Shown here: piece by piece, positions 3,794 to 43,316 of the stretch | How the letters are laid out: each line of letters starts with the position of its first letter | Numbering within the stretch: position 1 is the stretch's first letter | Assembly (NCBI GenBank): GCA_947444925.1 | Contig: CANFBW010000001.1 | Coordinates: 29,823-93,822, forward strand | Length of the DNA stretch: 64,000 bases | Source: Flavobacteriales bacterium | Lineage (GTDB): Bacteria; Bacteroidota; Bacteroidia; Flavobacteriales_C; GCA-002722245 | Direction of reading: 5' to 3' | The notes under the pieces: generated by a model | What the model saw: the letters and a program-made list of their open reading frames with translations, nothing else | Databases searched by the model: none | What the model was told of the DNA's origin: nothing | Position numbers and translations under genes: made by a program

Positions 3794-4694
3794 GTATTTT
3801 GAACATAAAAATATTGACTTTCAGAAATGGGATACTTGTGTTCGCCAGAGTATTCAGCAGTTGCCATATGCTTTTTCTTGGTATTTGGATGAGTTGTGCG
3901 AAAACTGGGACGGCATAGTGGTTGGCGATTACGATGCTATTTTTCCTTTGCCGTGGAATAAAAAATTCGCTATTAAATATGTTTATCCGCCGTTTTTTAT
4001 ACAGCAATTGGGCTTGTATTCAAAAACGCAAACAGATGAAAATATTTTGTTTGAAGTTTGGAAAATCGCAAATTCAAAATTTAAGTTTTTAGAGTATTAT
4101 CTAAATTCCTTTGATGGATTGAAAGCTCCGGGATTGACTGCAGAGCGCGTGAATTTCGAGTTGAATTTGTCGTCTTCCCATGACGACATAAAAAAAGGAT
4201 ATTCGGAAAATTGTCGCCGAAATATTAAGAAGGCAGTTCAACTTGGATTGACTGTTGAGGAAGTGCCAAAGGCTTTGGAAGTGATTAATTTGTTTCAGCA
4301 GGAAAAAGGGAAAAGCATCAAAACGCTTTCTAAAAAAGATTACCTCCGCTTTGAAGGATTGATGGATGTGTGCGATTACAAAGGGATATTAAGAGTGAAG
4401 CATGTTTTGCTGGCAGGTAAAGTTTGTGCCGGCGCATGTTTTTTAAAAACAGAAGGGAAAATAGTCTTTCTTTTTTCGGGAAACAATGAGCTGGCGAGAA
4501 ATTCGGGCGCTATGGCTTTTTTAATCGACAGTGTTGTTCATGAATACAGCGGACAAAATATCACCTTTGATTTTGAAGGGTCAAACGATGATAATATTGG
4601 AAGATTTTACCAAAGTTTTGGTGCGTTGAATCATCCCTATTTGTTTGTGAAGGTGAATAAATTGGGCTTTCCGCTGAAGTTGTTGAAGAAATAA
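3783..4694 (+). CDS. FemAB-like / GNAT-fold acyltransferase family protein (Acetyltransf_6-like)
   Basis: The ORF track starts at 3723, but the first plausible start is MDIKYFEHK at 3783, giving an 11-bp overlap with the upstream gene. Roughly 300 aa with a two-lobed GNAT-like pattern. The function call is weak. Confidence 0.45.
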   Translation: MDIKYFEHKNIDFQKWDTCVRQSIQQLPYAFSWYLDELCENWDGIVVGDYDAIFPLPWNKKFAIKYVYPPFFIQQLGLYSKTQTDENILFEVWKIANSKFKFLEYYLNSFDGLKAPGLTAERVNFELNLSSSHDDIKKGYSENCRRNIKKAVQLGLTVEEVPKALEVINLFQQEKGKSIKTLSKKDYLRFEGLMDVCDYKGILRVKHVLLAGKVCAGACFLKTEGKIVFLFSGNNELARNSGAMAFLIDSVVHEYSGQNITFDFEGSNDDNIGRFYQSFGALNHPYLFVKVNKLGFPLKLLKK

Positions 4695-4724
4695 TTTGAG
4701 CTTATTTATAGTCTGTTCGTGAGT

Positions 4725-4754
4725 GCGAGAATTTTTGTGCCCAAAAATTCTCGC
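4725..4754. terminator. Perfect 12-bp inverted repeat (gcgagaattttt-gtgccc-aaaaattctcgc) between convergent genes
   Basis: Seen directly in the sequence between the GNAT-like gene stop (4694) and the dNK stop (4782). Confidence 0.4.
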
Positions 4755-4781
4755 AATGACCTGTAGTCTGAAAAAATAGGA

Positions 4782-5396
4782 TTAGAATAATCCGTTAATC
4801 TCTGCGTCAATTTTAGTGATGATCTTTCCTAAATCTTCTTTGTTTTCAGGGAAGTTGTTGTGGTCAACATCGATTATTAATAGTTTACCGGCAGCATAGG
4901 TTGATATCCATGCCTCGTAACGTTCGTTCAATCTTGTAAGGTAATCCAAACGGATGGCGGCTTCGTATTCACGACCTCTTTTTTGAATTTGATTCACCAA
5001 TGTTGGAACACTTGCGCGCAGATAAATCAAAAGATCTGGCGCTTGAATCAAGCTATTGCAAAGGTTGAATAAATTGGAGTAGGTAGTGAAATCGCGTTTG
5101 ATCATCAAGTTCATTGCGTGCAAGTTGGGCGCAAAGATATAGGCGTCTTCGTAGATGGTTCTGTCTTGAATAACACTCTTGCCTGTTGTTCTTATTTCTT
5201 GAATTTTACTGAAGCGAGAGTTCAAAAAGTAAATTTGCAGGTTGAATGACCAGCGTTGCATGTCTTCGTAAAAGTCATTCATATAAGGGTTGTCATCGGC
5301 ATCTTCAAAATGTGCTTCCCATCCGTAATGCTTAGATAGCATTGAAGTAAGTGTTGTTTTTCCCGATCCTATATTTCCAGCAACAGCTACATGCAT
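4782..5396 (-). CDS. Deoxynucleoside kinase (dNK/dCK/dGK family)
   Basis: P-loop VAGNIGSGKTTL at the N-terminus and a DRxxYED-like motif (RTIYEDAYIF). The 204-aa length fits. Confidence 0.85.
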   Translation of the reverse strand: MHVAVAGNIGSGKTTLTSMLSKHYGWEAHFEDADDNPYMNDFYEDMQRWSFNLQIYFLNSRFSKIQEIRTTGKSVIQDRTIYEDAYIFAPNLHAMNLMIKRDFTTYSNLFNLCNSLIQAPDLLIYLRASVPTLVNQIQKRGREYEAAIRLDYLTRLNERYEAWISTYAAGKLLIIDVDHNNFPENKEDLGKIITKIDAEINGLF

Positions 5397-33271: not shown

Positions 33272-33997
33272 TTAGTTTTTAATGTTCATTCCTGCGTTCA
33301 TGAGAAGGTCGACGCCGTTCATTTGAACACTTGCAGAGCATAGGAAAGAAACGCTAGTGGCGACTTCTTCAATCGTGAGAAGTTTTTTTAAGGGATGGCT
33401 TTCCTTGATTTGTTCGATCATCCTTTCATCTGTTTCTGCAGTTAACGCAGTAAGCATGAACGAAGGAGAGATTGAGTTGGAGCTAATATTAAATTTTATG
33501 TTTTCTATCGCCCATACTTTGGTTAGTTTTTCTAAGTATGCTTTGTTGGCAATGTATACAGAAGATCCAATCGGTGGTGTATTGACTAGGGCAGCACTAA
33601 GAATAGTAATTATTTTTCCGCTCTTTTTTTTGCGGAAGGAAAGGATTGCTGTTTGCGTTATTTCAATTACTGGCAGTATATTGTTTTTAAAATCAAGAAA
33701 GAAGTCATTCGTTGGTGTTTTTTGAAAATGAGACTTAATGAATTCGCCGTTGTAAGCGTTATTGATTAGAACGTCTAAGTCAAATTCATGCATTGCCAAC
33801 TGAAGTGCCTGTATGTCATCAGGCTCACTGAAATCACATTTTATTGCTCTGCTATTGGGGTAATCGGTTTCAATTTCTTTGGCCTTCATAGCAGACTTGC
33901 TGTATGTAAAAAAAATGCTGTTATTTAGGTCTTCCGCTAGCTTTTTGGTGATCGCTTCTCCAAGTCCGGATGCGCCTCCTGTAATGAGTATATTCAT
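33272..33997 (-). CDS. SDR-family oxidoreductase (3-oxoacyl-ACP reductase-like)
   Basis: ILITGGASGLGEAI has the TGxxxGxG motif and NNAYNG is the NNAG motif. The catalytic YxxxK is SVYIANKAY. 241 aa. Confidence 0.8.
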   Translation of the reverse strand: MNILITGGASGLGEAITKKLAEDLNNSIFFTYSKSAMKAKEIETDYPNSRAIKCDFSEPDDIQALQLAMHEFDLDVLINNAYNGEFIKSHFQKTPTNDFFLDFKNNILPVIEITQTAILSFRKKKSGKIITILSAALVNTPPIGSSVYIANKAYLEKLTKVWAIENIKFNISSNSISPSFMLTALTAETDERMIEQIKESHPLKKLLTIEEVATSVSFLCSASVQMNGVDLLMNAGMNIKN

Positions 33998-34389
33998 AAG
34001 AGTATGCCAATTTGAATTTTTCCTTTCGCAACTATTTTACTTGCTGTTTTGAAATCGTATTTGAATTCAACTGCATTCACTGATTCGTAGATGCCAATGA
34101 TTACGGCCGTAAACAGTAATTCATCGTTGAGGTAAACAGGGTTTTTGAATTGTATTTCTTGAGAATGAATAATGACATTCTTAGTGGGTAAGCATTCCCC
34201 AATAAAATAAGAAAGGAATCCGTTCAAAATATTACCGTGCATAACTTTGCCTTTAAATCCTTTTGAGATTGCAAATGTCTCATTACAATGTAGCGGATTA
34301 TTATCTCTAAATAAGGCAACGAAGTTCGCGTGTGTATGCTCGGAAACCGTAAATTTTTCTTCGTATGTATTTCCTTCAACAAAAATCAT
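33994..34389 (-). CDS. Hotdog-fold (MaoC/FabZ-like) dehydratase
   Basis: 131 aa. The HTHANFVALFRDNNPLH motif sits at the N-terminus, where His/Asp are typical of MaoC dehydratases. 4-bp overlaps on both sides. Confidence 0.6.
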   Translation of the reverse strand: MIFVEGNTYEEKFTVSEHTHANFVALFRDNNPLHCNETFAISKGFKGKVMHGNILNGFLSYFIGECLPTKNVIIHSQEIQFKNPVYLNDELLFTAVIIGIYESVNAVEFKYDFKTASKIVAKGKIQIGILL

Positions 34390-34628
34390 ATTCCTTTTTC
34401 TTGCATGTTGGAAATCATTTCGCCAACGTTCGCCCAGCTTTGGATTTCTTTAGATGTAAAACGTATTTTGAATGCCTTTTCAATAGCCACTACGAGTTGT
34501 ATATGTGTCAAAGAATCCCATTCCTCAACGTCATTTGCATTTGATTTCTCTGTGATTATGATGTCGTCATTATCGAGAGTTTCGATAAAGATGGCGTTTA
34601 TCTTTTGGATAATTTCACTTCTTTCCAT
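34386..34628 (-). CDS. Acyl carrier protein (stand-alone PP-binding protein)
   Basis: EEWDSLTHIQLVVAIE contains the conserved DSL phosphopantetheine-attachment Ser. The start is taken at MERSEIIQ. The ORF track extends 18 codons further upstream. Confidence 0.75.
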   Translation of the reverse strand: MERSEIIQKINAIFIETLDNDDIIITEKSNANDVEEWDSLTHIQLVVAIEKAFKIRFTSKEIQSWANVGEMISNMQEKGI

Positions 34629-34635
34629 TGCTATT

Positions 34636-36357
34636 TTATTTGGTGCGTATAAAATTCTTTTTTGTTTCGTATGAAGGTACATCTAAATGCCAACGCTCTG
34701 TTCTTTCTGTGAAGCCCAAGTTGGCATAATGTTCTTTGACCATTTCATTTTTTGCGGTGGGCACATATTCTCCAATGATCGACGAATAGCATTTGTCTTT
34801 TGCAAATTCAACGATGCTATTAAGTACAAAATTTTCCATTCCACGTTTCAATACTCGGCAGCTCATAAACCATGAATCAATGAACAAGGTACTTGCGTTT
34901 TCTTTGCGTAGAATGACAACACAAATCAATCCATTGTCTCCAAATTTGTCATTTAAAGTAAATGAAAAAGTGAAGTGATCTTTAGAATTTGCCAGTTTTT
35001 CAATGTCCGCGTCGTCGTAACGCACGGTGCGCAGATTGAATTGATTCGAACGCTGAGAAAGCTGTGATACTCTGGGTGTATTGAATTTATTAAAGGATTC
35101 AACCAATGATAACATGTTTAAGCTTTTCAGAAAATCATCTTCATTGGTGAAGTTTTGTTGCACTCGGCTTCTTTGCGCCTCTACCTGGTACAACTGTGTT
35201 CTTTCAGTGTCTTCTTTGGAGAAAGAAGCGGTTTCAAAAAGGTTTAAGGTATAGAGATATTCCAAATATTCTGCAGGATCCTCTGGAAGTTCAGGGACAC
35301 AGATTTGAGGAATGTTTTCTCTAACGATGTTTCTTTCAAATGGATTGTCGTCGAGAAAAACCATAGAGTCAAAACCAATGTTCAATATTTTTTGAATTTG
35401 ACGGATATTGTCGGCTTTATTTTCCCAATTGGCAACAAAAACAGCAATGTCTTCGAGGTGTAGCACCATGTCGGGATGTTTTTCAAAAGGTTCTTTGGCT
35501 ACCGACTCAGTGTTTTTACTACACACCGCTATGATAATTCCTCTCTGTTTTAATTTTTTAATCCAATATTGAAATTCAGAAAAAGCTTTTCCTATTCCCA
35601 AAGCTCCAATTTGTATGTTTTCTAAGCCATCGTCACCAATGATTCCCCCCCACATGGTATTGTCTAAATCAACAATGAGACATTTTTTAAATTTGCCTTC
35701 TAGTGCTGAAATGAGCGCTATTGTTTTCGCTGCAACTATTGGAAGTGCATCAATACTCAAAACCATTTCTGTATTGATGTATATAGCGCTTTGAAATAAG
35801 AATTGTTTTCCGAAGTTGTTTTGAATAGAGGAGATGTCACACAAATAAAAATTGTTGGTTTTGGCTGCATACAGCATCAACTCGTAATTCAGCTTTCTAA
35901 GTTGAAACAAGAAAGAAGATTCTGTTTTGTTGGCGAAATTTCCAAAAACCGCATCTTCAATTTCAGTGTAATTGTAGTAGATTATTTTTGCATTGAGTTT
36001 TTGTGTGAGAACAGAAAAACTGTTTTTAATGATTTCGAGTTCATTGGCTGCCAGCAAAGGGTGTTGCTCTACTTTGTATTTATTGTATTTTCCAAGCAGT
36101 TTATGTGCCGATTGAAATACAAGGATGATTTCGGGTGCAAAAGAATACAGTTCAGAATTGGGGTCGAAAATTTGTCTTTCAATTTGATTGAAGTCGGCTT
36201 CCCATATGTCTAAATTCAATCCTTCGTCGAACGCTGTTCCTCGCAATGCTTGAATTAAAAACTGTGTTGCACTATCTCCCAGCACTGCTATTTTAATGGT
36301 CTTCAGTTTTGAGAAATCCTTCTTTAAATTCTTTTTTAACTGAGAAAAGTCTTTCAT
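34636..36357 (-). CDS. FkbH-like protein (HAD-superfamily IIIC phosphatase-like loader with GNAT-like C-terminal domain)
   Basis: 573 aa. HAD motif I is LIVDLDNTMWGG. The N-terminal IKIAVLGDSATQF is GDS-like. The C-terminal ~170 aa are GNAT-fold-like. The length and domain order match FkbH/HAD-IIIC family proteins. Confidence 0.7.
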   Translation of the reverse strand: MKDFSQLKKNLKKDFSKLKTIKIAVLGDSATQFLIQALRGTAFDEGLNLDIWEADFNQIERQIFDPNSELYSFAPEIILVFQSAHKLLGKYNKYKVEQHPLLAANELEIIKNSFSVLTQKLNAKIIYYNYTEIEDAVFGNFANKTESSFLFQLRKLNYELMLYAAKTNNFYLCDISSIQNNFGKQFLFQSAIYINTEMVLSIDALPIVAAKTIALISALEGKFKKCLIVDLDNTMWGGIIGDDGLENIQIGALGIGKAFSEFQYWIKKLKQRGIIIAVCSKNTESVAKEPFEKHPDMVLHLEDIAVFVANWENKADNIRQIQKILNIGFDSMVFLDDNPFERNIVRENIPQICVPELPEDPAEYLEYLYTLNLFETASFSKEDTERTQLYQVEAQRSRVQQNFTNEDDFLKSLNMLSLVESFNKFNTPRVSQLSQRSNQFNLRTVRYDDADIEKLANSKDHFTFSFTLNDKFGDNGLICVVILRKENASTLFIDSWFMSCRVLKRGMENFVLNSIVEFAKDKCYSSIIGEYVPTAKNEMVKEHYANLGFTERTERWHLDVPSYETKKNFIRTK

Positions 36358-36476
36358 TAATAGATGGAAAATTGAAATGTTAGATCATAAAAGTAGCTTT
36401 TGAATTTGAGAATCACAAAGAAACAAGGGTGTTAGCTATATGTTTGTTGTTGTCAATTTCCAAAATAAGCAACGGA

Positions 36477-37430
36477 TCAATGCTGGCTTAAATGAGATAT
36501 AGCGTTTTTAAAACTAGGAAAAGCCATTATTTTCTTTGTAAACCACTCTCCTCCGCATTTGTTTAAGTGACCATTGTCGGCATACAGTGAGTCGGGAAGG
36601 TCACCTACTTGTTCTTTAGAGCAGAAAAGGTGTCCGTTTTTTTTGATGATGTCACTCACCCGTAAGTCATGTGCTTTTATATATGCTGCAACGGTTTTGT
36701 TGTGGTATTTTTGATTTGGGGATGGCATATTTACATACAAAATGGTTATGTTTTTGCGCTTAAAATATGAGCACACTTTTTCAAGATAGACATAAGATTT
36801 TTCGACGCTTCTGTATTCTTTTACAGCGGAGATTTTTCGTTGCTCGTTAATGTATGTGCCGCCATTGATGTCTAAGGATTGATTGCCGCTATTTTTTTTT
36901 GTTTTCTTTAATTCGTCATTGATCCAACAGGTGTATTTGATCAATCCATCAAGGTTTCCTCCTTTTAAGTAGGAGTACTCGCAGAATGTACCAGTAAAAT
37001 ACAGATCTAATTCAAGCGATGAAGGAATGTTTTTTTCTTCGACCAGTGCTTCAGCAGTGTATAAGGATTGACAGTCGATCCACAACAATAGTTTTGGACG
37101 AATGTGATTTGCAATAAATTCCGAAGTCCGGTCAATATCCCGAGCTGTGAAATGCCATGATGCAAAATTGTAGTAATGAAGATTTGGCGGTATCGATTTC
37201 AGTAGAACGGAAGTGTTTAAGTCATAATATGTAAGAGAACTTCCTATGCCGAGGATGTCAATTTCTTTAACTTGTGTGTGTTTTAAGTGCCACATTTTTA
37301 CGTCAAAAGAACCACTATCAGATAAGCGTGGTGCGATATTTTTTTGTTCAAGGTAAATGCGGTACAATACCATTGATCCATAGGTCAATAGCGTGAAAAT
37401 TAATATTTTATATAGCGTTTCTTTTTTCAA
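36477..37430 (-). CDS. Membrane-anchored SGNH-like protein, DltD/AlgJ-type partner of the MBOAT
   Basis: The ORF track starts inside the MBOAT gene. A TTG at 37430..37428 overlapping the MBOAT stop gives MKKETLYKILIFTLLTYGSMVLY, a signal anchor. DILGIGSSLTYYD is a candidate Ser-nucleophile block. The position directly downstream of the MBOAT mirrors DltB-DltD, PatA-PatB and AlgI-AlgJ pairs. Confidence 0.5.
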   Translation of the reverse strand: MKKETLYKILIFTLLTYGSMVLYRIYLEQKNIAPRLSDSGSFDVKMWHLKHTQVKEIDILGIGSSLTYYDLNTSVLLKSIPPNLHYYNFASWHFTARDIDRTSEFIANHIRPKLLLWIDCQSLYTAEALVEEKNIPSSLELDLYFTGTFCEYSYLKGGNLDGLIKYTCWINDELKKTKKNSGNQSLDINGGTYINEQRKISAVKEYRSVEKSYVYLEKVCSYFKRKNITILYVNMPSPNQKYHNKTVAAYIKAHDLRVSDIIKKNGHLFCSKEQVGDLPDSLYADNGHLNKCGGEWFTKKIMAFPSFKNAISHLSQH

Positions 37431-38869
37431 AATTGAAAATAGATGAATTGTTGATGTTGCATATTTCCAAAAAGTATGATCATCCAAATTGCAAATAAGT
37501 ATACTGGCCATCTAAGTGATTTAGAAGACCTAAAGAAGCGGGCATAAATGTCATGTCGGATGTCTAGCCATTCCAATGCAATCAAAAGGATTATTAACAT
37601 GAAGTCAATAAATAATCCTTTTGTCCCAATGTCATAGTTAACATTGATAGAAAGTCCTTTGATATTTAGTGTGAAGATGGTTTTGAAAGCACTCATTGCC
37701 TGACCAAAATTCTTTGCTCTAAATAAGATAAAAGCGAGTGCGACAAAGGAAAATGTGATTCCCGTTGCTAAGAAATTGAAAAGGTGGGTGTTGGTTTTGT
37801 TTTTGAGTTGTTTTCTTTTTTTCTTGGTTAAGATTTCTACGGAAAGGTAAATTCCGTGAACAAATCCATAACAAATAAAAGCCCAACTGGCGCCATGCCA
37901 TAAACCACTTAGTGTGAAAATTATCATAACCCCTAGTATTGGCGCCCATTTTCCTGCATCTCGCATGTTGATTACAATGGGAGTATATATATAATTGGTG
38001 AACCATGTGGTGAGTGATATGTGCCACTTTCTCCAAAATTCGGTTAGACTTTTACTGAAAAATGGCTTATTAAAATTGCTTACCAATTCAAATCCCATAA
38101 CCCTGGCAGTTCCCTTCGCTATTAAACTGTATCCCGCGAAATCACAATATACTTGTATTGTGAAAAAGAGAGTGGCTATTACTATTGGGAAAAAGGAATA
38201 TTGTGTTAGGTCGTTAAAAACGGTGTTGACATAAGTTGCCAGATTATCAGCGATTACTATTTTTTGCATAGCGCCCCAAAGCATCAGTTGTAAGCCATAC
38301 GTTATATCTTGCGTTTGAACGCCAGGATGGGTTTTAAGTTGAGGTAATAGGTGATTTCCTTTTTCTATTGGGCCTGCAACGAGTTGTGGGAAAAAGCAAA
38401 CAAATAGAGCGAAAATTCCAAGGTGTTTTTCTGCCTTTAATTCTCCTTTATAGACATCAATTAGGTAGCCTGTAATTTGAAATACATGAAATGAAATACC
38501 AATCGGCAAAGCCCATTTTAAGTAGGGAAAATGATGAAAAATATTGAGTCCTGTCAATGCACTGTTTATGTTGTCAATAGTAAAATCGTAATATTTAAAA
38601 ATGAACAATTGACCAAAATTACATACGAGACCTATTGTGAAAAGAACTTTCCTTTTATGAATTGAATTACTAGATTCCATGCCTAAGCTACATAGGTAGC
38701 TGATCACAATGGTAGCCAGTAATAGTAGTAGGTAGTCAAATCGCCAGCACGAATAGAAATAAATACTCGCTAGGAGTAGAGGGATCCACTTGTATTTTGA
38801 AGGGGTGCTTAAAAAAACAATCGCAACGGCAATAAAAAAAAACAGGTAGTCTACGGAATTAAAAAGCAT
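37427..38869 (-). CDS. MBOAT-family membrane-bound O-acyltransferase (DltB/AlgI/PatA-like)
   Basis: 480 aa and polytopic. The conserved His region is FWRKWHISLTTWFTNYIYTPI. The overall MBOAT pattern includes WHGASW. Confidence 0.85.
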   Translation of the reverse strand: MLFNSVDYLFFFIAVAIVFLSTPSKYKWIPLLLASIYFYSCWRFDYLLLLLATIVISYLCSLGMESSNSIHKRKVLFTIGLVCNFGQLFIFKYYDFTIDNINSALTGLNIFHHFPYLKWALPIGISFHVFQITGYLIDVYKGELKAEKHLGIFALFVCFFPQLVAGPIEKGNHLLPQLKTHPGVQTQDITYGLQLMLWGAMQKIVIADNLATYVNTVFNDLTQYSFFPIVIATLFFTIQVYCDFAGYSLIAKGTARVMGFELVSNFNKPFFSKSLTEFWRKWHISLTTWFTNYIYTPIVINMRDAGKWAPILGVMIIFTLSGLWHGASWAFICYGFVHGIYLSVEILTKKKRKQLKNKTNTHLFNFLATGITFSFVALAFILFRAKNFGQAMSAFKTIFTLNIKGLSINVNYDIGTKGLFIDFMLIILLIALEWLDIRHDIYARFFRSSKSLRWPVYLFAIWMIILFGNMQHQQFIYFQF

Positions 38870-38984
38870 TGTGCGTTTTTTTAATACCTATTAAAATCTT
38901 GATTTTTGTCGCGATAATCATGAAGTCATGTTGGTGCGCTAAAATAGTGGTTTTAATTGAAAACGAACAAACGTAAAATAAAAA

Positions 38985-39011
38985 CCCCTCAATTAAATTG
39001 AGGGGTTTTTT
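38985..39011. terminator. Bidirectional rho-independent terminator (cccctcaatttaattgagggg flanked by A- and T-runs)
   Basis: Perfect 8-bp GC-rich stem. On the minus strand it immediately follows the tRNA 3' end. Confidence 0.6.
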
Positions 39012-39012
39012 G

Positions 39013-39087
39013 TGGGAGCTATAGGATTCGAACCTATGACCCTCTGCTTGTAAGGCAGATGCTCTGAACCAGCTGAGCTAAGCTCCC
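39013..39087 (-). tRNA. tRNA-Val (anticodon UAC)
   Basis: The reverse complement folds as a cloverleaf: GGGAGCTTAGCTCAGCTGGTTCAGAGCATCTGCCTTACAAGCAGAGGGTCATAGGTTCGAATCCTATAGCTCCCA. The acceptor stem is GGGAGCT/AGCTCCC, the anticodon loop is CTTACAA, and the T-arm is GGTTCGAATCC. Confidence 0.85.
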
Positions 39088-39170: not shown

Positions 39171-41294
39171 CTAATTTTTTCTGTCGTAGTAGAAAAGGCG
39201 CAGCAATGCTGGAAAAAATATGAAATCACTAATCCATGCGAAGATGATGGCAGAGGTGGAGAGAATACCAAAATCGATGATGAAAACAATGTTGCTGGTC
39301 AGCAATACCGCAAAACCGATTGCAAACATAATAGTTGTTGCAGTGCAAGGGTGCACAATGATGCGCACTGAGTCGGCAAAGAGCACGTTGATTGCATAAT
39401 TTTTACGCTGGTACAAGTTGTTTTTAAAGCTCCAGATAACGTGGAGTACATCGTCGGCTATCATGCCGACAACAACAGAGAAAATCACGGACGTTGCTAT
39501 GTCAAATGGAATATTGAGTAGCTTCATTAGTAAGGCAACAGCGCAAAGTGGAAAAATGGTTGCGAAAGTTGCGAGTAATCCAAGTTTCAAGTCGCGCACA
39601 AATACGGACATTACCAATAAAATCAAGATTACTGCAACAAATAAGCTTTCCAGCATTTCATCAACGATTACATTCATTTGTTCAATGTAAGCGGGTAAAT
39701 ACCCCACCGCTCTTGCTGAAATCGGTTCTTTGCCAATGGCTGAGTTGATTTTTGATTGCGCTGTATTGATCATTTTTTCCATCTCTTTTACAGAGCCAGA
39801 TGGAATTTGAATAGTGATGCGCGAATGCATTTGGTCTTTCGAAAGCAGACCCGCAGAAATGCCTTCGGCATCTTTTGGACTGCTGTATTTTAATTCACTA
39901 AGAAGCGGTTTCCACGCATCGTAGGCGACGGCACTCTTAATGTAAGGTAGTGTGAGTAGTTGTTTTCGCACGTGCGCAATGGTTCTCCAATCAGCATTGC
40001 TGAATGGTTTTCCATCTTCTTTGTCGACCATGAAGTCGATGATGTTTACAGAGCCAAAGTTTTTTTCAATGTAGTCTTTTGACATCCGTACTTTGTTGTC
40101 AGGTTTTATAAAACCGACCGTATCCGTATCAACTGTTACATAAGGAAATATGAAAACACCGGCCCCCATCCACACCAACATAATGATCATGACGATCCAC
40201 GCTAGGCGTTTGTTCAGTTTAGCATAGTATCCGTCTAACATCTTGTTCATCCAATCCATTTTTTCAATGTTTCGGTTCACGTCGATGCTGCGCACAACCA
40301 ATGGTGTGCCAATTAAAAATAGCACCACTAATCCGATCACAATCCCTAATGAAGTGAGCAAGCCGAATTGGTAAATGACTTTGATGTTGCTCAACATTAA
40401 GGACCCAAAGCCAATGATGTTGGTCAACGCCGAAGTAAGGATGGGGGGGATTTTTTTATTTAAATACTTGTCGACATCACTGCTTTGTTTAGTGACTAAG
40501 TGCATTGCAAATGAGAAGAAGTTGATGATGAACAGCAGTGGTACTATCAATGTAATCATATTGATTGGAACATTGAACCAGCCAAATAGCGACATAGCTG
40601 GCCATATGGCAAGGAGAACCAATGATGAGCAGAGAAGTAAGTATTTTGCTTTTCGCAAGCGCCACCAAAGTAGAAGAAAGATCAACGCATAGCACGAAGT
40701 GAAAAGCCATTTGGAATCTTGGGTGCTAAGGGCGTTGATTTCTGTAAAAATAACGCCAGCTCCAGTTAAATCTTTTTTAATTGTGGCTGGGATTTGCGGA
40801 TAAACCAATTTTTGCAAGGAATCCAGTAAAAGAGGGCGAATTCTATCGGGATCTTTGTTGAGTCGCACTCTCAAAAACATGGCCTCACCATTGGGATTGG
40901 TTGATTTGAAGTAGGTGTCTTCCATTTTGTGGACGTATTCTTCGCCCATCAAATCTTTCAAGGAAGTGAGGTTTAAGCGTGAAAAAGTTTGATCGAAACC
41001 GTGAATTTTGCGAATATTTTCGCTCGTTGCATATAGTTGATCAAGTTTCTGATCCTCACTAATGCCCTTCGGAAAAGTAAGATAGAGTACCATTACTTCG
41101 TCGTTGCCGAAGTAACTTTCAAATTCATTTTTATCGGGAAGTTGACGGGAATTTTCGGGATACCAATCTTCGGGACGATTGGCGATGTGTATTTTCAAAA
41201 TGGGAATACCTGATAGCAATACAATGGCAGTTAAGAGAATTAACAGCCACGGTTTTTTTGCCGCAAAACGGATATATTTTAAATACAATTTCAT
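39171..41294 (-). CDS. MMPL / RND-superfamily exporter (COG1033-like, two 6-TM bundles)
   Basis: About 700 aa with two hydrophobic blocks separated by soluble domains. The likely start is MKLYLKYIRFAAKKPWLLILLTAIVLL. The ORF track extends this to 41327. Confidence 0.65.
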   Translation of the reverse strand: MKLYLKYIRFAAKKPWLLILLTAIVLLSGIPILKIHIANRPEDWYPENSRQLPDKNEFESYFGNDEVMVLYLTFPKGISEDQKLDQLYATSENIRKIHGFDQTFSRLNLTSLKDLMGEEYVHKMEDTYFKSTNPNGEAMFLRVRLNKDPDRIRPLLLDSLQKLVYPQIPATIKKDLTGAGVIFTEINALSTQDSKWLFTSCYALIFLLLWWRLRKAKYLLLCSSLVLLAIWPAMSLFGWFNVPINMITLIVPLLFIINFFSFAMHLVTKQSSDVDKYLNKKIPPILTSALTNIIGFGSLMLSNIKVIYQFGLLTSLGIVIGLVVLFLIGTPLVVRSIDVNRNIEKMDWMNKMLDGYYAKLNKRLAWIVMIIMLVWMGAGVFIFPYVTVDTDTVGFIKPDNKVRMSKDYIEKNFGSVNIIDFMVDKEDGKPFSNADWRTIAHVRKQLLTLPYIKSAVAYDAWKPLLSELKYSSPKDAEGISAGLLSKDQMHSRITIQIPSGSVKEMEKMINTAQSKINSAIGKEPISARAVGYLPAYIEQMNVIVDEMLESLFVAVILILLVMSVFVRDLKLGLLATFATIFPLCAVALLMKLLNIPFDIATSVIFSVVVGMIADDVLHVIWSFKNNLYQRKNYAINVLFADSVRIIVHPCTATTIMFAIGFAVLLTSNIVFIIDFGILSTSAIIFAWISDFIFFPALLRLFYYDRKN

Positions 41295-41390
41295 TTTAAT
41301 ACACAGTGCTTTACGGTCAACACACAATTGTTTCCGGTAAAGCGATCGCTAAAGTAAGAAAAAGCAAAGATAGTTCTGCTGTAAAAGCAA

Positions 41391-42134
41391 TCAATATCGA
41401 GGTTTGGAGTGTTTTCCGGTTAGTTTAAAATAACCTTTCATGTACTTTCCTTTGATGCCCGCTCTGAACAAAGAGTAGATTCCTGCAAGAAAAAGTTCAG
41501 TGACACTGCGTGGCGTTGCATTGTAAAATCTTCGCGCAGAGGTCTTAACGTAAGTGCTTCTGATTAATTTAGAACGATAGTAAGGTGCGGCATCCACCCC
41601 GTATTTATAGTCTTCAAAAATAATTCCGTTGTTAAATCCGCCAATTTTATTGTGAATTTCTTTTGTTGAAAAGATGCAACAACCGTGCACTGCGGGTTTA
41701 AACCAACGCAAAACAGTAAGATAAATGTTGGAGTAGGCCCAGTATAGAAAACGGTAGTATAAGTTTTTTTCAGCGGCGTAAATTTTACTTCCTCCGACTT
41801 TAATGCCTCTTCGCACAATTTCGTCCATTGCTGTCTTCAGGAAATTTGCAGGAAGCACCACATCTGCGTCAAGAAAAAGAAGGTTTTCATAGATCGCGTT
41901 GTCGGCACCAATGTTTCTTTGCAGAGATATGTTGCGCAGATTGTCAAGTGCGATGAAGTTTATTGGCATGCCGTGTTCGTTTTTGAAACGAGCTGCTACT
42001 TCTGCTGTTTTGTCGTCAGAGCCTGCGTCTGATATAACAATTTCATATACAACACCTTTTTGTATGCGAATGCTTTCCAATAATTTCGGAAGGTAGTTTT
42101 CTTCGTTGAGCGTACAAATTACAATTGATACCAT
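41391..42134 (-). CDS. Family 2 glycosyltransferase
   Basis: MVSIVICTLNEENYLPKLLESI...ISDAGSDDKT...LFLDADV reads as the GT2 DxD-type Rossmann N-terminal domain. Confidence 0.8.
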   Translation of the reverse strand: MVSIVICTLNEENYLPKLLESIRIQKGVVYEIVISDAGSDDKTAEVAARFKNEHGMPINFIALDNLRNISLQRNIGADNAIYENLLFLDADVVLPANFLKTAMDEIVRRGIKVGGSKIYAAEKNLYYRFLYWAYSNIYLTVLRWFKPAVHGCCIFSTKEIHNKIGGFNNGIIFEDYKYGVDAAPYYRSKLIRSTYVKTSARRFYNATPRSVTELFLAGIYSLFRAGIKGKYMKGYFKLTGKHSKPRY

Positions 42135-42173
42135 CCCCTAAATATAATGTTAGTGTTGTAGTTTTGTTTTGAA

Positions 42174-43316
42174 TTAAATTGATCCTGCCAAATGAGATTT
42201 GTTGTTTTCGGCAAGAATGTCGTCGGCGGTTATTTTCAAATGCTTAACATGTGAAACCACGCCTTCAAAGAAGGAGAAAGATTTGTACCAATCTGCGTTG
42301 TTTTCCTCTAAGGTTTCCTTAATGATATCAGTAAGTGCCGGGTAATGGATGTGACACACTTCAGGAAAAAGATGATGGGCGATGTGAAGGTTGAACCCAC
42401 CAAAAATAAAATTTGAAACTGGACTGTCAGGATTAAAGTCGATGGTTGTAATTACTTGATGTCTTGACCAAGCGTCATGTACAACGTGGTTTGCTTCATC
42501 AGCTTCCACGTAAGGAACTTCTACCACGTGATGAGAAATGAAGAAGGTGTAAGTTAAAGCTAAGGAAACCAGCATGTGCATGATTACGAAGGCTGCGATA
42601 ATTTCAAACAAGGAAAAAGTATCGCCTAACAAAATGTATGGTAATGCGATGAAGTTGAAGAAATATACAAGCTTTAGCAGAATCACTTTAAGCAATTCGT
42701 AAAATGGAACATGATTGAATTTTAAATTCGCGTGGTCTTTTCTGTAAAAGAAGGTGAAGTCGATGAATATGATCCAAATTAAAGAGGAGAACATGTACAG
42801 AAATGAAGCGTAAATGTGTTGAAATTTATGGAGTTTGTGCGTTTTTTGACCTGGGTGCAGCAAAAGCATGTTGGTTATTTCCAAGTCGGAATCGTAGTTG
42901 AATACATTTGGAAAAATATGATGGGAACTATTGTGGCGAATTTGCCAAAAATAGCCGCTCATTCCATTAATGCCGAATACCATTTGAAAAATAAAGTTGT
43001 CCACCTTTTTGTTGCCTGTAATACAGTGGTGCGCGGCATCGTGCCCGATATTGATGCCTACTATTAAAAGAGATGTGGCAACAACAATGTATAATAATGT
43101 TAATGTTAGAAAAGATCCAGCATGCAAAAGAGCATAATAAGCTACAATTGCCAAGAGCATCATCGAGATGAATTTCACCCAAAGATAGGTGTTGCCATTT
43201 TTTCCGCCTTTTTGAGAAGCGAAGTACTTTTCAGACTTGGCTCTTATTTGTTTGAAGATATGATCCGAGGTGTCCTTCGACTCATACTTCATTTTTTTCT
43301 TTTCAAAAGATTTCAT
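42174..43316 (-). CDS. Membrane fatty-acid desaturase (three His boxes)
   Basis: The three His boxes are HDAAHH, HNSSHH and HIAHHLFP, with four TM helices. 380 aa. Confidence 0.8.
   Translation of the reverse strand: MKSFEKKKMKYESKDTSDHIFKQIRAKSEKYFASQKGGKNGNTYLWVKFISMMLLAIVAYYALLHAGSFLTLTLLYIVVATSLLIVGINIGHDAAHHCITGNKKVDNFIFQMVFGINGMSGYFWQIRHNSSHHIFPNVFNYDSDLEITNMLLLHPGQKTHKLHKFQHIYASFLYMFSSLIWIIFIDFTFFYRKDHANLKFNHVPFYELLKVILLKLVYFFNFIALPYILLGDTFSLFEIIAAFVIMHMLVSLALTYTFFISHHVVEVPYVEADEANHVVHDAWSRHQVITTIDFNPDSPVSNFIFGGFNLHIAHHLFPEVCHIHYPALTDIIKETLEENNADWYKSFSFFEGVVSHVKHLKITADDILAENNKSHLAGSI

Follow-up and report, generated by a model that had tools for sequence, protein, structure and literature searches.

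The stretch of DNA analysed here, called the window throughout, is 64,000 nucleotides of Flavobacteriales contig CANFBW010000001.1, and the subject of this report is a cassette of six genes, all on its minus strand, with the features of an extracytoplasmic acylation system. In transcription order the genes encode a membrane-bound O-acyltransferase (MBOAT), its partner with an SGNH fold, an FkbH-type loader, a small acyl carrier protein (ACP), a hotdog dehydratase of the MaoC type and an SDR ketoreductase (Table 1). All six open reading frames (ORFs) are present, in one direction, at the coordinates given in a first-pass annotation of the same sequence. That annotation also described 4-bp overlaps between the genes, and these are found at three junctions (TTGA at MBOAT/partner, ATGA at ACP/MaoC and at MaoC/SDR). 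The description fails for FkbH and ACP, which are 7 nt apart, and 119 nt separate the partner from FkbH. Pfam and NCBIfam searches gave clear family matches for five of the six proteins, the PF03062, TIGR01686 and PP-binding families named in the annotation among them; the partner was the exception.

Table 1. Positions of the cassette, its motifs and other features discussed in the text
Feature	Position in window	Strand	Remarks
Six-gene cassette	33272-38869	-	ORF coordinates confirmed
MBOAT acyltransferase, 480 aa	37427..38869	-	First operon gene; PF03062
MBOAT region between conserved histidines	37895-38023		Without PLGG; relatives compared in L011-L173
Segment TPIVINMRDAGKW, MBOAT residues 296-308	37946..37984	-	Between conserved histidines; aligned with DltB horizontal helix HC
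FIYFQF, C-terminal hexapeptide of MBOAT	37430..37447	-	FXYXXF acyl-shuttle motif; predicted acyl-Tyr is Tyr477
Membrane-anchored SGNH/DltD-like transferase, 317 aa	36477..37430	-	TTG start overlapping MBOAT stop
FkbH-type loader, 573 aa	34636..36357	-	FkbH_N, HAD-IIIC phosphatase and C-terminal acyl-enzyme domains
DLDNT of FkbH-like protein	35656-35670	-	In HAD-IIIC phosphatase domain
SCRV of FkbH-like protein	34852-34863	-	In C-terminal acyl-enzyme domain
Carrier protein, 80 aa	34386..34628	-	ATG 34628; PP-binding
Predicted phosphopantetheine site, Ser39 in WDSLTH	34509-34517 (DSL)	-
MaoC-type hotdog dehydratase, 131 aa	33994..34389	-	Hydratase-2 motif DNNPLH; PF01575 (MaoC_dehydratas) 5e-11
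SDR ketoreductase, 241 aa	33272..33997	-	FabG-like; adh_short_C2 2e-30
tRNA-Val(TAC) and hairpin terminator	38980-39087	-	ARAGORN; hairpin scan; upstream operon boundary
tRNA-Val	39012-39087		ARAGORN
Terminator-like hairpin	39010-38980
MMPL/RND-type transporter, family-2 glycosyltransferase, fatty-acid desaturase	39171-43316		Co-directional; upstream of the tRNA
ORF of 1776 aa	15414-20744	+	No Pfam match at E <= 1e-4
Gly/Lys/Asp-rich ORF of 258 aa	28515-29291		No Pfam match

The donor genes

The FkbH-like protein matches FkbH_N at 7e-74 and TIGR01686 with 308.9 bits (3.7e-92, cutoff 146.65), and its residues 3-381 align at 3e-154 with PDB 3slr, the B. fragilis protein BF1531, whose function is unassigned. 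It was aligned with the FkbH protein of a Streptomyces plasmid, which lies among genes for a ketosynthase (KS), a FabH-like protein, an ACP and a phosphopantetheinyl transferase in a cluster of the tetronate type, and with two alphaproteobacterial and two distant metagenomic homologues. Invariant across the alignment are D230-L-D232-x-T234, S280-K-N, D336-D337 and S499-C500-R-V, which we take to be the HAD phosphatase motifs and the acyl-holding cysteine of FkbH enzymes. The initial assignment of this gene to the FkbH-like HAD-IIIC proteins, made from its DxDxT motif, is well founded. Enzymes of the FkbH family charge an ACP with a glyceryl unit that comes from 1,3-bisphosphoglycerate, and family membership together with the conserved residues suggests the same loading step here. 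No gene for an AMP-binding protein was found in the operon or in the window, and the FkbH-type gene occupies the place that one would take.

The carrier protein scores 22.7 bits on PF00550 (cutoff 20.8, E value 1e-4) and reaches 1e-8 on ACP models, below their cutoffs. Ser39, the predicted attachment site at the DSL motif noted earlier, lies within the pattern WDSL.H..L.V..E, which 80 orthologues conserve at 95% or more. In the MaoC-type protein D29 and H34 of the hydratase-2 motif are kept in 32 orthologues. The SDR scores about 105 bits against 3-oxoacyl-ACP reductase models, under their cutoffs, and has the conserved features TGGxSGLG, Y148 and K152. Pfam matches and preserved catalytic motifs thus agree with the original description of these two genes as a hotdog dehydratase and an SDR reductase.

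The MBOAT protein

Membership of the MBOAT superfamily is clear (PF03062, 3e-23, 83 bits against a cutoff of 27), and the best match in the PDB is DltB (6bug, 1.6e-29). On the DltB equivalog model TIGR04091 the protein scores 174 bits, under the cutoff of 375, and it is therefore not a DltB orthologue. At least 97% of 153 relatives keep two histidines, H283 in WHISL and H325 in LWHG. In alignment with DltB, the invariant His336 stands opposite H325, and His289 opposite H283. The His block WHISLTTWF reported in the first-pass annotation does contain a conserved histidine, H283, and is incomplete in that the second lies outside it.

The protein ends in FIYFQF, an FXYXXF motif, in which F475, I476, Y477 and F480 are kept in at least 97% of the same relatives. 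The hexapeptide follows about 95 residues, with two hydrophobic segments, that extend beyond the DltB-aligned core. Every listed full-length cassette MBOAT from other species ends in FIYFQF or a near variant (exact FIYFQF in 50 of 74). PatA acylates the tyrosine of FXYXXF, as DltB does that of DltX, and from there the acyl group goes to the SGNH partner; non-Dlt MBOATs carry the motif as part of the enzyme itself (PMC12148441). Between the two histidines lies a segment, TPIVINMRDAGKW, that aligns with the horizontal helix HC of DltB, which contacts DltC at the tunnel entrance via M302, V305, I306, M309 and K312 (PMC11035591). In the alignment V305, I306 and M309 of this set are matched by V299, I300 and M302 in the window protein. 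Together with the PLGG pattern described below, the resemblance of the segment to the DltC-docking helix is moderate, independent evidence that the window MBOAT may dock a carrier protein.

The SGNH partner

The product of the second gene had no match in Pfam or NCBIfam even at E = 10, and it was characterised instead through a profile of its family and a fold search. A word-indexed search for homologues returned three matches, whereas an exhaustive search returned 182 representatives. In alignments of this family G63-S64-S65, N88, D187, G190 and D285-x-x-H288 are invariant, which is the pattern of SGNH blocks I, III and V. The best solved relatives of the family profile are DltD structures (3bma, E 0.011; 6o93, E 0.028), and some family members have precomputed Pfam matches to DltD, DUF1574 or LB_356. 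An AlphaFold model built from a 30-sequence alignment (pLDDT 85.5, pTM 0.85) has an N-terminal helix at residues 3-29 followed by an alpha/beta domain. Model, profile and motifs bear out the SGNH/DltD-like fold that had been proposed, and the gene next to the MBOAT accordingly encodes a partner with a Ser/Asp/His triad, as in systems of the PatAB type.

There are three candidate starts for this protein. The TTG overlapping the MBOAT stop, favoured in the first-pass annotation, is supported by a homologue of the same length, 317 aa. An ATG at 37511 would give 344 aa, the form for which a structure prediction had been proposed. The NCBI call of 298 aa would remove the N-terminal helix.

Conservation of the cassette

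Close homologues of the FkbH-like protein number in the thousands (the matches listed are about 73-79% identical), and the named hosts include Flavobacterium, Pedobacter, Puia and Maribacter. One genome per species was scanned, giving 80 loci with FkbH homologues 69-76% identical to that of the window, and the loci were scored with the six window proteins and the partner-family profile. Of these, 63 have at least 6 kb of downstream flank and were treated as assessable. An ACP gene adjoins FkbH in every assessable locus (63/63) and in 79 of all 80, so the link between the two proteins on which the earlier interpretation depended is a general one. An MBOAT gene lies within 10 kb of FkbH in 56 of the 63, a recognisable partner is present in 43, and MaoC and SDR are both present in 25. 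The co-occurrence of FkbH, ACP and MBOAT, which the first-pass annotation had singled out for a survey of this kind, is thus the usual state of affairs, and the cassette is widespread and not peculiar to the source genome.

The physical arrangement is equally regular. Among the 67 loci that carry an MBOAT, it is on the same strand as the donor genes in 62 and no more than 200 bp from them in 49. The partner profile found nothing in 13 MBOAT-bearing loci, 12 of which have an unassigned ORF of about 300-375 aa right after the MBOAT (a contig end truncates one, and one has a GDSL Pfam match). The commonest gene order is FkbH-ACP-(MaoC-SDR)-MBOAT-partner, and the window has the two modules reversed. 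Median identity to the window proteins falls from 72% for FkbH, 67% for MaoC, 63% for ACP and 59% for SDR to 36% for MBOAT and about 21% for the partner; the donor module is therefore conserved and the transfer module is diverging quickly.

The surroundings of the cassette vary from bare to elaborate. Pedobacter superstes has only FkbH, ACP, MBOAT and partner amid unrelated genes, and cassettes as small as this offer no candidate but the MBOAT for unloading the acyl group from the carrier. L091 and L093 have all six genes within a locus of Wzx, NeuB, CMP-sugar and glycosyltransferase genes, which suggests that a surface polysaccharide is the acceptor. Upstream of its donor genes and beside a GT4 gene, Flavobacterium psychrotolerans carries three MBOAT genes, two of which have a partner-family gene directly after them.

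The cassette is also found outside the Bacteroidota. A 2.4-Mb Methylobacter (Gammaproteobacteria) contig has a full FkbH-ACP-MaoC-SDR-MBOAT-partner cassette (L025:10001-15507), and its FkbH is 75% identical to that of the window, which suggests transfer between phyla. A Rhodobacteraceae plasmid (L174:6494-12281) encodes, in order, an ACP, a HAD-IIIC protein, an MBOAT, a hypothetical protein, a VOC protein and an acyltransferase. The S. meliloti pSymB megaplasmid region L177:4409-10290 encodes a VOC protein, an MBOAT, a 409-aa protein, an ACP and a HAD-IIIC protein, and lies between lsr genes and the rkpR capsule-export genes. The 409-aa protein is an SGNH-like partner (GGS, DxxH) misannotated as 'TonB-dependent receptor'. 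The alphaproteobacterial cassette MBOATs end in FIYFNF and FLYQGF, and their partners carry GSS or GGS, plus DxxH.

The survey also bears on a quite different role for the block, the supply of a starter or extender unit to a polyketide or tetronate pathway, with the MBOAT incidental. In methoxymalonyl and tetronate pathways glyceryl-ACP is canonically supplied by FkbH with an ACP, and the Streptomyces plasmid homologue does have KS, FabH-like, ACP and phosphopantetheinyl transferase genes around it. However, the window enzyme is 27% identical to that protein, against 69-76% to the cassette orthologues. No KS or acyltransferase (AT) gene was found in the 64-kb window, which extends to its full length the absence previously recorded for the block and its flanks, and no modular KS gene was found in any of the 80 homologous loci. 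FabH-like KS III genes occur in just three of them (L023, L042 and L088), all in sugar or polysaccharide gene sets and all among the seven loci that have no MBOAT, so that MBOAT and KS III seem to draw on the same acyl-ACP as alternatives to each other. With homologous loci free of polyketide synthase genes, the earlier verdict against such a pathway stands, and we regard a polyketide role as extremely improbable.

Donor specificity of the MBOAT

When the window MBOAT was itself used to scan metagenomes, its relatives were only 36-44% identical, and most proved to be MBOAT-partner pairs with no FkbH; about 10 of 80 were FkbH-linked, and 21 assessable loci had neither FkbH nor ACP. Five relatives are directly preceded by an ACP gene, each with an ORF of about 490-580 aa upstream. 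The three of these ORFs that were scanned all encode AMP-binding proteins, one of them followed by a GNAT gene. The MBOATs behind AMP-ligase(+GNAT) and ACP genes are 36-41% identical to that of the window. In a Ferruginibacter locus (L022:2078-11611) an FkbH-ACP-MBOAT-SGNH set is followed by genes for an AMP-ligase, a 221-aa protein, an ACP, an MBOAT and an SGNH protein, so that sets fed by the two kinds of loader stand side by side. Since related MBOATs are found behind AMP-ligase and carrier genes, the two loader types appear to be interchangeable, in keeping with the original proposal that the FkbH-type protein replaces the adenylating enzyme.

Attempts to separate carrier-linked from unlinked MBOATs by overall identity gave no clean split, and the NCBIfam DltB score was also rejected as a separator (linked 161-174 bits, with S. 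meliloti at 113, vs 143-157 bits for unlinked). Only the segment between the conserved histidines distinguished them; there the carrier-linked proteins resemble DltB in having a hydrophobic stretch. The signature Y(I/F)PLGG(N/S)(R/K) is found there in 19 of 21 MBOATs with no FkbH or ACP nearby, and PLGG is absent from 75 of the 77 that are nearest an FkbH-ACP or AMP-ligase-ACP pair (Fisher p = 5e-16, ignoring phylogeny). Of 72 loci, 70 have a non-PLGG MBOAT in the position nearest FkbH. Where a locus has at least two MBOATs the one farther from FkbH is of the PLGG type in six of seven cases, the exception being the AMP-ligase/ACP-linked MBOAT of L022, where both are non-PLGG. The window MBOAT lacks PLGG, as does DltB when the two are aligned. 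PLGG status at the docking segment may thus be a general predictor of the donor used by an MBOAT. Locus L116:8001-11613, with a non-PLGG MBOAT, a 339-aa partner, MaoC and SDR, and no FkbH or ACP within 8 kb, is an exception which the model does not explain.

These data also bear on whether the two halves of the cassette belong together at all. They could be independent neighbours, with the MBOAT and SGNH proteins forming an acetyl-CoA-dependent O-acetyltransferase of the PatA/PatB or AlgI/AlgJ kind, and the acyl group made by the FkbH, ACP, MaoC and SDR proteins being attached to a sugar nucleotide or a lipid by a cytoplasmic transferase whose gene lies elsewhere. The close MBOAT relatives (36-42% identical) that mostly lack FkbH and ACP are consistent with that arrangement. 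So are the polysaccharide or sugar-modification loci with a donor module and no MBOAT (L092, and Maribacter, where FabH-like and DegT genes accompany it). MBOAT/SGNH pathways other than Dlt have, moreover, been described in 2025 as using acyl-CoA and no carrier protein (PMC12148441). Set against this are the position of the MBOAT beside FkbH and ACP in 56 of 63 species, mostly close by and on the same strand, the non-PLGG character of the FkbH-nearest MBOATs as opposed to the second ones in the same loci, and the parallel AMP-ligase-ACP-MBOAT arrangements. There is also no other candidate transferase in the window or in the minimal cassettes. The gene context argues for ACP over acyl-CoA as the likely donor to the window MBOAT, and we consider independent neighbours an unlikely explanation.

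Proposed mechanism

Our preferred reading, which we hold to be probable, is that the operon encodes a carrier-protein-dependent MBOAT-SGNH acylation system. The FkbH-like enzyme would take a glyceryl unit from 1,3-bisphosphoglycerate, its HAD domain stripping the phosphate, and would hold the unit as a thioester on Cys500 before passing it to the phosphopantetheine on Ser39 of the carrier. MaoC would then remove the 3-OH to give enol-pyruvoyl- or pyruvoyl-ACP, and the SDR would reduce the 2-keto group to give lactyl-ACP. The acyl-ACP would dock from the cytoplasmic side on the MBOAT segment aligned with DltB helix HC, and H283 and H325 would move the acyl group onto Tyr477 of FIYFQF at the outer face. 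Ser65 of the SGNH partner would accept it there and esterify an extracytoplasmic polymer, most likely a surface polysaccharide. These last steps are modelled on the published Dlt and PatAB mechanisms and on the gene context of related loci, which for the acceptor means those in Wzx-type polysaccharide loci.

The middle steps are drawn by analogy with the dehydratase-ketoreductase (DH-KR) proteins of FR901464 and lankacidin biosynthesis, which convert glyceryl-S-ACP to lactyl-S-ACP according to He et al. 2014, as cited in PMC4765723. A lactyl product is suggested because MaoC and SDR come straight after the ACP, their starts are translationally coupled, and one is seldom present without the other; in the whole set of 80 loci both are found in 28, MaoC in 31 and SDR in 29. 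The proposal in the first-pass annotation that these enzymes 'oxidise or dehydrate' the loaded unit is in this way sharpened to a likely conversion of glyceryl to lactyl, and we put the chance that lactyl is the group transferred at slightly below even.

The system could also work as proposed with a different acyl group, such as glyceryl, pyruvoyl or another product of MaoC and SDR (a 3-oxo or 2-hydroxy-3-oxo C3 unit). MaoC and SDR are both absent from 31 MBOAT-linked loci, and in these the unmodified FkbH product would itself be a competent donor. The genes between ACP and MBOAT may be absent, or be MaoC and SDR, a methyltransferase and VOC, MaoC and a B12-radical-SAM protein, a methyltransferase with MaoC and SDR, or VOC alone. 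The swapping of tailoring genes indicates a family of different small acyl groups. Cassettes with no MaoC and SDR would transfer glyceryl, and those with a methyltransferase an O-methylated unit. In aeruginosin-type pathways FkbH domains load glycerate for later methylation (PMC10143770). The SDR, as well, falls under the cutoff of every named NCBIfam reductase family. However, the only characterised DH-KR pair acting on glyceryl-ACP in the account of PMC4765723 yields lactyl-ACP, removal of a 3-OH by MaoC suits a glyceryl-ACP substrate, the Asp and His of hydratase-2 are kept, and the two genes are almost always paired. A group other than lactyl on an otherwise correct system seems to us rather unlikely. 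Examples of the tailoring variants are seen at L026:3118-4737, L029:4380-5698 and L051:11722-12630, and include a B12-binding radical-SAM protein after MaoC, a SAM methyltransferase with a VOC/glyoxalase protein, and a methyltransferase with MaoC and SDR.

Several points weigh against the mechanism as we have drawn it. The chemistry of all the components is predicted, and the acyl conversion is proposed from the position of MaoC (DNNPLH) and SDR (Y148/K152) right after the ACP and from their co-occurrence across species. FkbH-ACP(-MaoC-SDR) sets that have no MBOAT indicate that the donor module can serve cytoplasmic acylation. By identity and nearest neighbour the window MBOAT is 42-44% identical to linked and unlinked kinds alike. 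The Fisher test takes no account of kinship, and the unlinked set is largely one clade. The presence of PLGG in PatA and AlgI is only presumed. AlphaFold prediction of the MBOAT from its sequence alone gave no usable structure (pLDDT 40). Finally, no polysaccharide locus that would point to an acceptor was found in the window. On balance the comparative evidence upholds the overall interpretation given in the first-pass annotation, every testable element of which held.

Relation to known systems

The closest parallel is the Dlt pathway (DltA, DltB, DltC, DltD and DltX), which D-alanylates teichoic acids in Gram-positive bacteria and likewise combines a carrier protein, an MBOAT and a membrane-anchored SGNH protein. 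DltB is the best solved relative of the window MBOAT and DltD gives the longest structural alignment with the partner. A hydrophobic segment is present where DltB docks DltC, and the FXYXXF motif is shared. In contrast to Dlt, the loader in the window is an FkbH-type HAD/acyltransferase and not the adenylating DltA, the predicted acyl group is a C3 hydroxy acid instead of D-alanine, the shuttle motif is joined to the MBOAT's C-terminal end where Dlt has the separate microprotein DltX, and the host is Gram-negative and has no teichoic acids. Because DltA and DltX are absent and the MBOAT falls under the DltB cutoff, the cassette is not a member of the Dlt pathway.

The O-acetyltransferases of the PatA/PatB, AlgI/AlgJ/AlgX and WssH types resemble the cassette in having a fused FXYXXF motif, a separate SGNH partner and an extracytoplasmic polymer as target, and many MBOAT-SGNH pairs that have no carrier are among the closest relatives of the window MBOAT. 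They differ in being reported to use acetyl-CoA without a carrier protein (PMC12148441), and the carrier-less relatives have Y(I/F)PLGG(N/S)R between the histidines, which the window MBOAT does not.

On the donor side, the FkbH, OzmB and tetronate Tmn16/RkE loaders, together with the FR901464/lankacidin route, offer the same domain architecture, the DxDxT and SCRV motifs, an ACP next door and a dehydratase and ketoreductase after it. Here, however, there is no KS, AT or non-ribosomal peptide synthetase partner, MaoC and SDR are free-standing and not domains of the polyketide synthase type, and the predicted consumer is a membrane O-acyltransferase. The use of FkbH-ACP outside polyketide synthesis, to decorate a glycan, has a precedent in cj1302 of the Campylobacter jejuni flagellar glycosylation locus (PMC7099621) and in loci of the Maribacter type. 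The partners there are cytoplasmic (FabH-like, aminotransferase), MBOAT and SGNH proteins are absent, and an amino sugar is probably N-acylated before export.

No description of an FkbH- or HAD-IIIC-linked MBOAT system was found in the literature searched, whose coverage was incomplete, and the cassette thus appears to be what the first-pass annotation called it, an undescribed variation on the Dlt/Pat/Alg theme. One paper that contains both FkbH and MBOAT concerns unrelated aeruginosin genes (PMC10143770) and was set aside.

Neighbouring genes

The tRNA-Val gene and hairpin stand between the operon and an upstream MMPL gene, and a convergent DUF3078 gene faces the 3' end of the operon. The MMPL, GT2 and desaturase genes upstream of the tRNA may form a glycolipid or lipid export unit. 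On a metagenome contig with the identical six genes (L003), a phage-type integrase (3925-5160) lies beside the MBOAT in place of this flank, and the tRNA-Val region appears to be a variable point. A functional tie of the operon to the three genes was considered and rejected because the tRNA and terminator intervene and the flank is exchanged in L003.

The remainder of the window, which includes MutS, a thiamine operon, a hybrid two-component regulator, ExbBD and GH20, has the look of an ordinary Bacteroidota-type chromosome. The 258-aa ORF lies directly upstream of a FolC-like gene, their ends overlapping, and close to exbB/exbD, and may encode a protein like TonB. A Megablast comparison of the block with plasmids found no match, and the PADLOC defence models found none. 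A sigma-70 promoter scan performed no better than on shuffled sequence, the model not being applicable to Bacteroidota promoters.

Implications

Taken beyond the window, the observations can be read as a large, horizontally mobile Gram-negative family of carrier-dependent MBOAT-SGNH systems that place glycolysis-derived hydroxy-acyl esters on surface glycans. FkbH and ACP would be its conserved core, with swappable tailoring (to glyceryl, lactyl, O-methylglyceryl and other units), FkbH or an AMP-ligase as loader, fast-diverging and presumably acceptor-specific transfer modules, and PLGG predicting the donor. We give this wider generalisation an even chance of being right.

If it is, there would be a second, widespread class of carrier-fed MBOAT/SGNH systems, with a non-adenylating loader, and the chemistry of surface decoration would be widened past acetyl and D-alanyl groups. 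Decoration would also be tied directly to glycolytic flux via 1,3-bisphosphoglycerate. A role would be provided for thousands of Bacteroidota and Proteobacteria genes now labelled 'HAD-IIIC family phosphatase', 'MBOAT family protein' or 'hypothetical protein', among them the S. meliloti pSymB genes beside the capsule-export genes, and a simple sequence marker of the MBOAT donor type would become available. Esters of this kind could influence recognition of the cell surface by phage and by the immune system, and in symbiosis.

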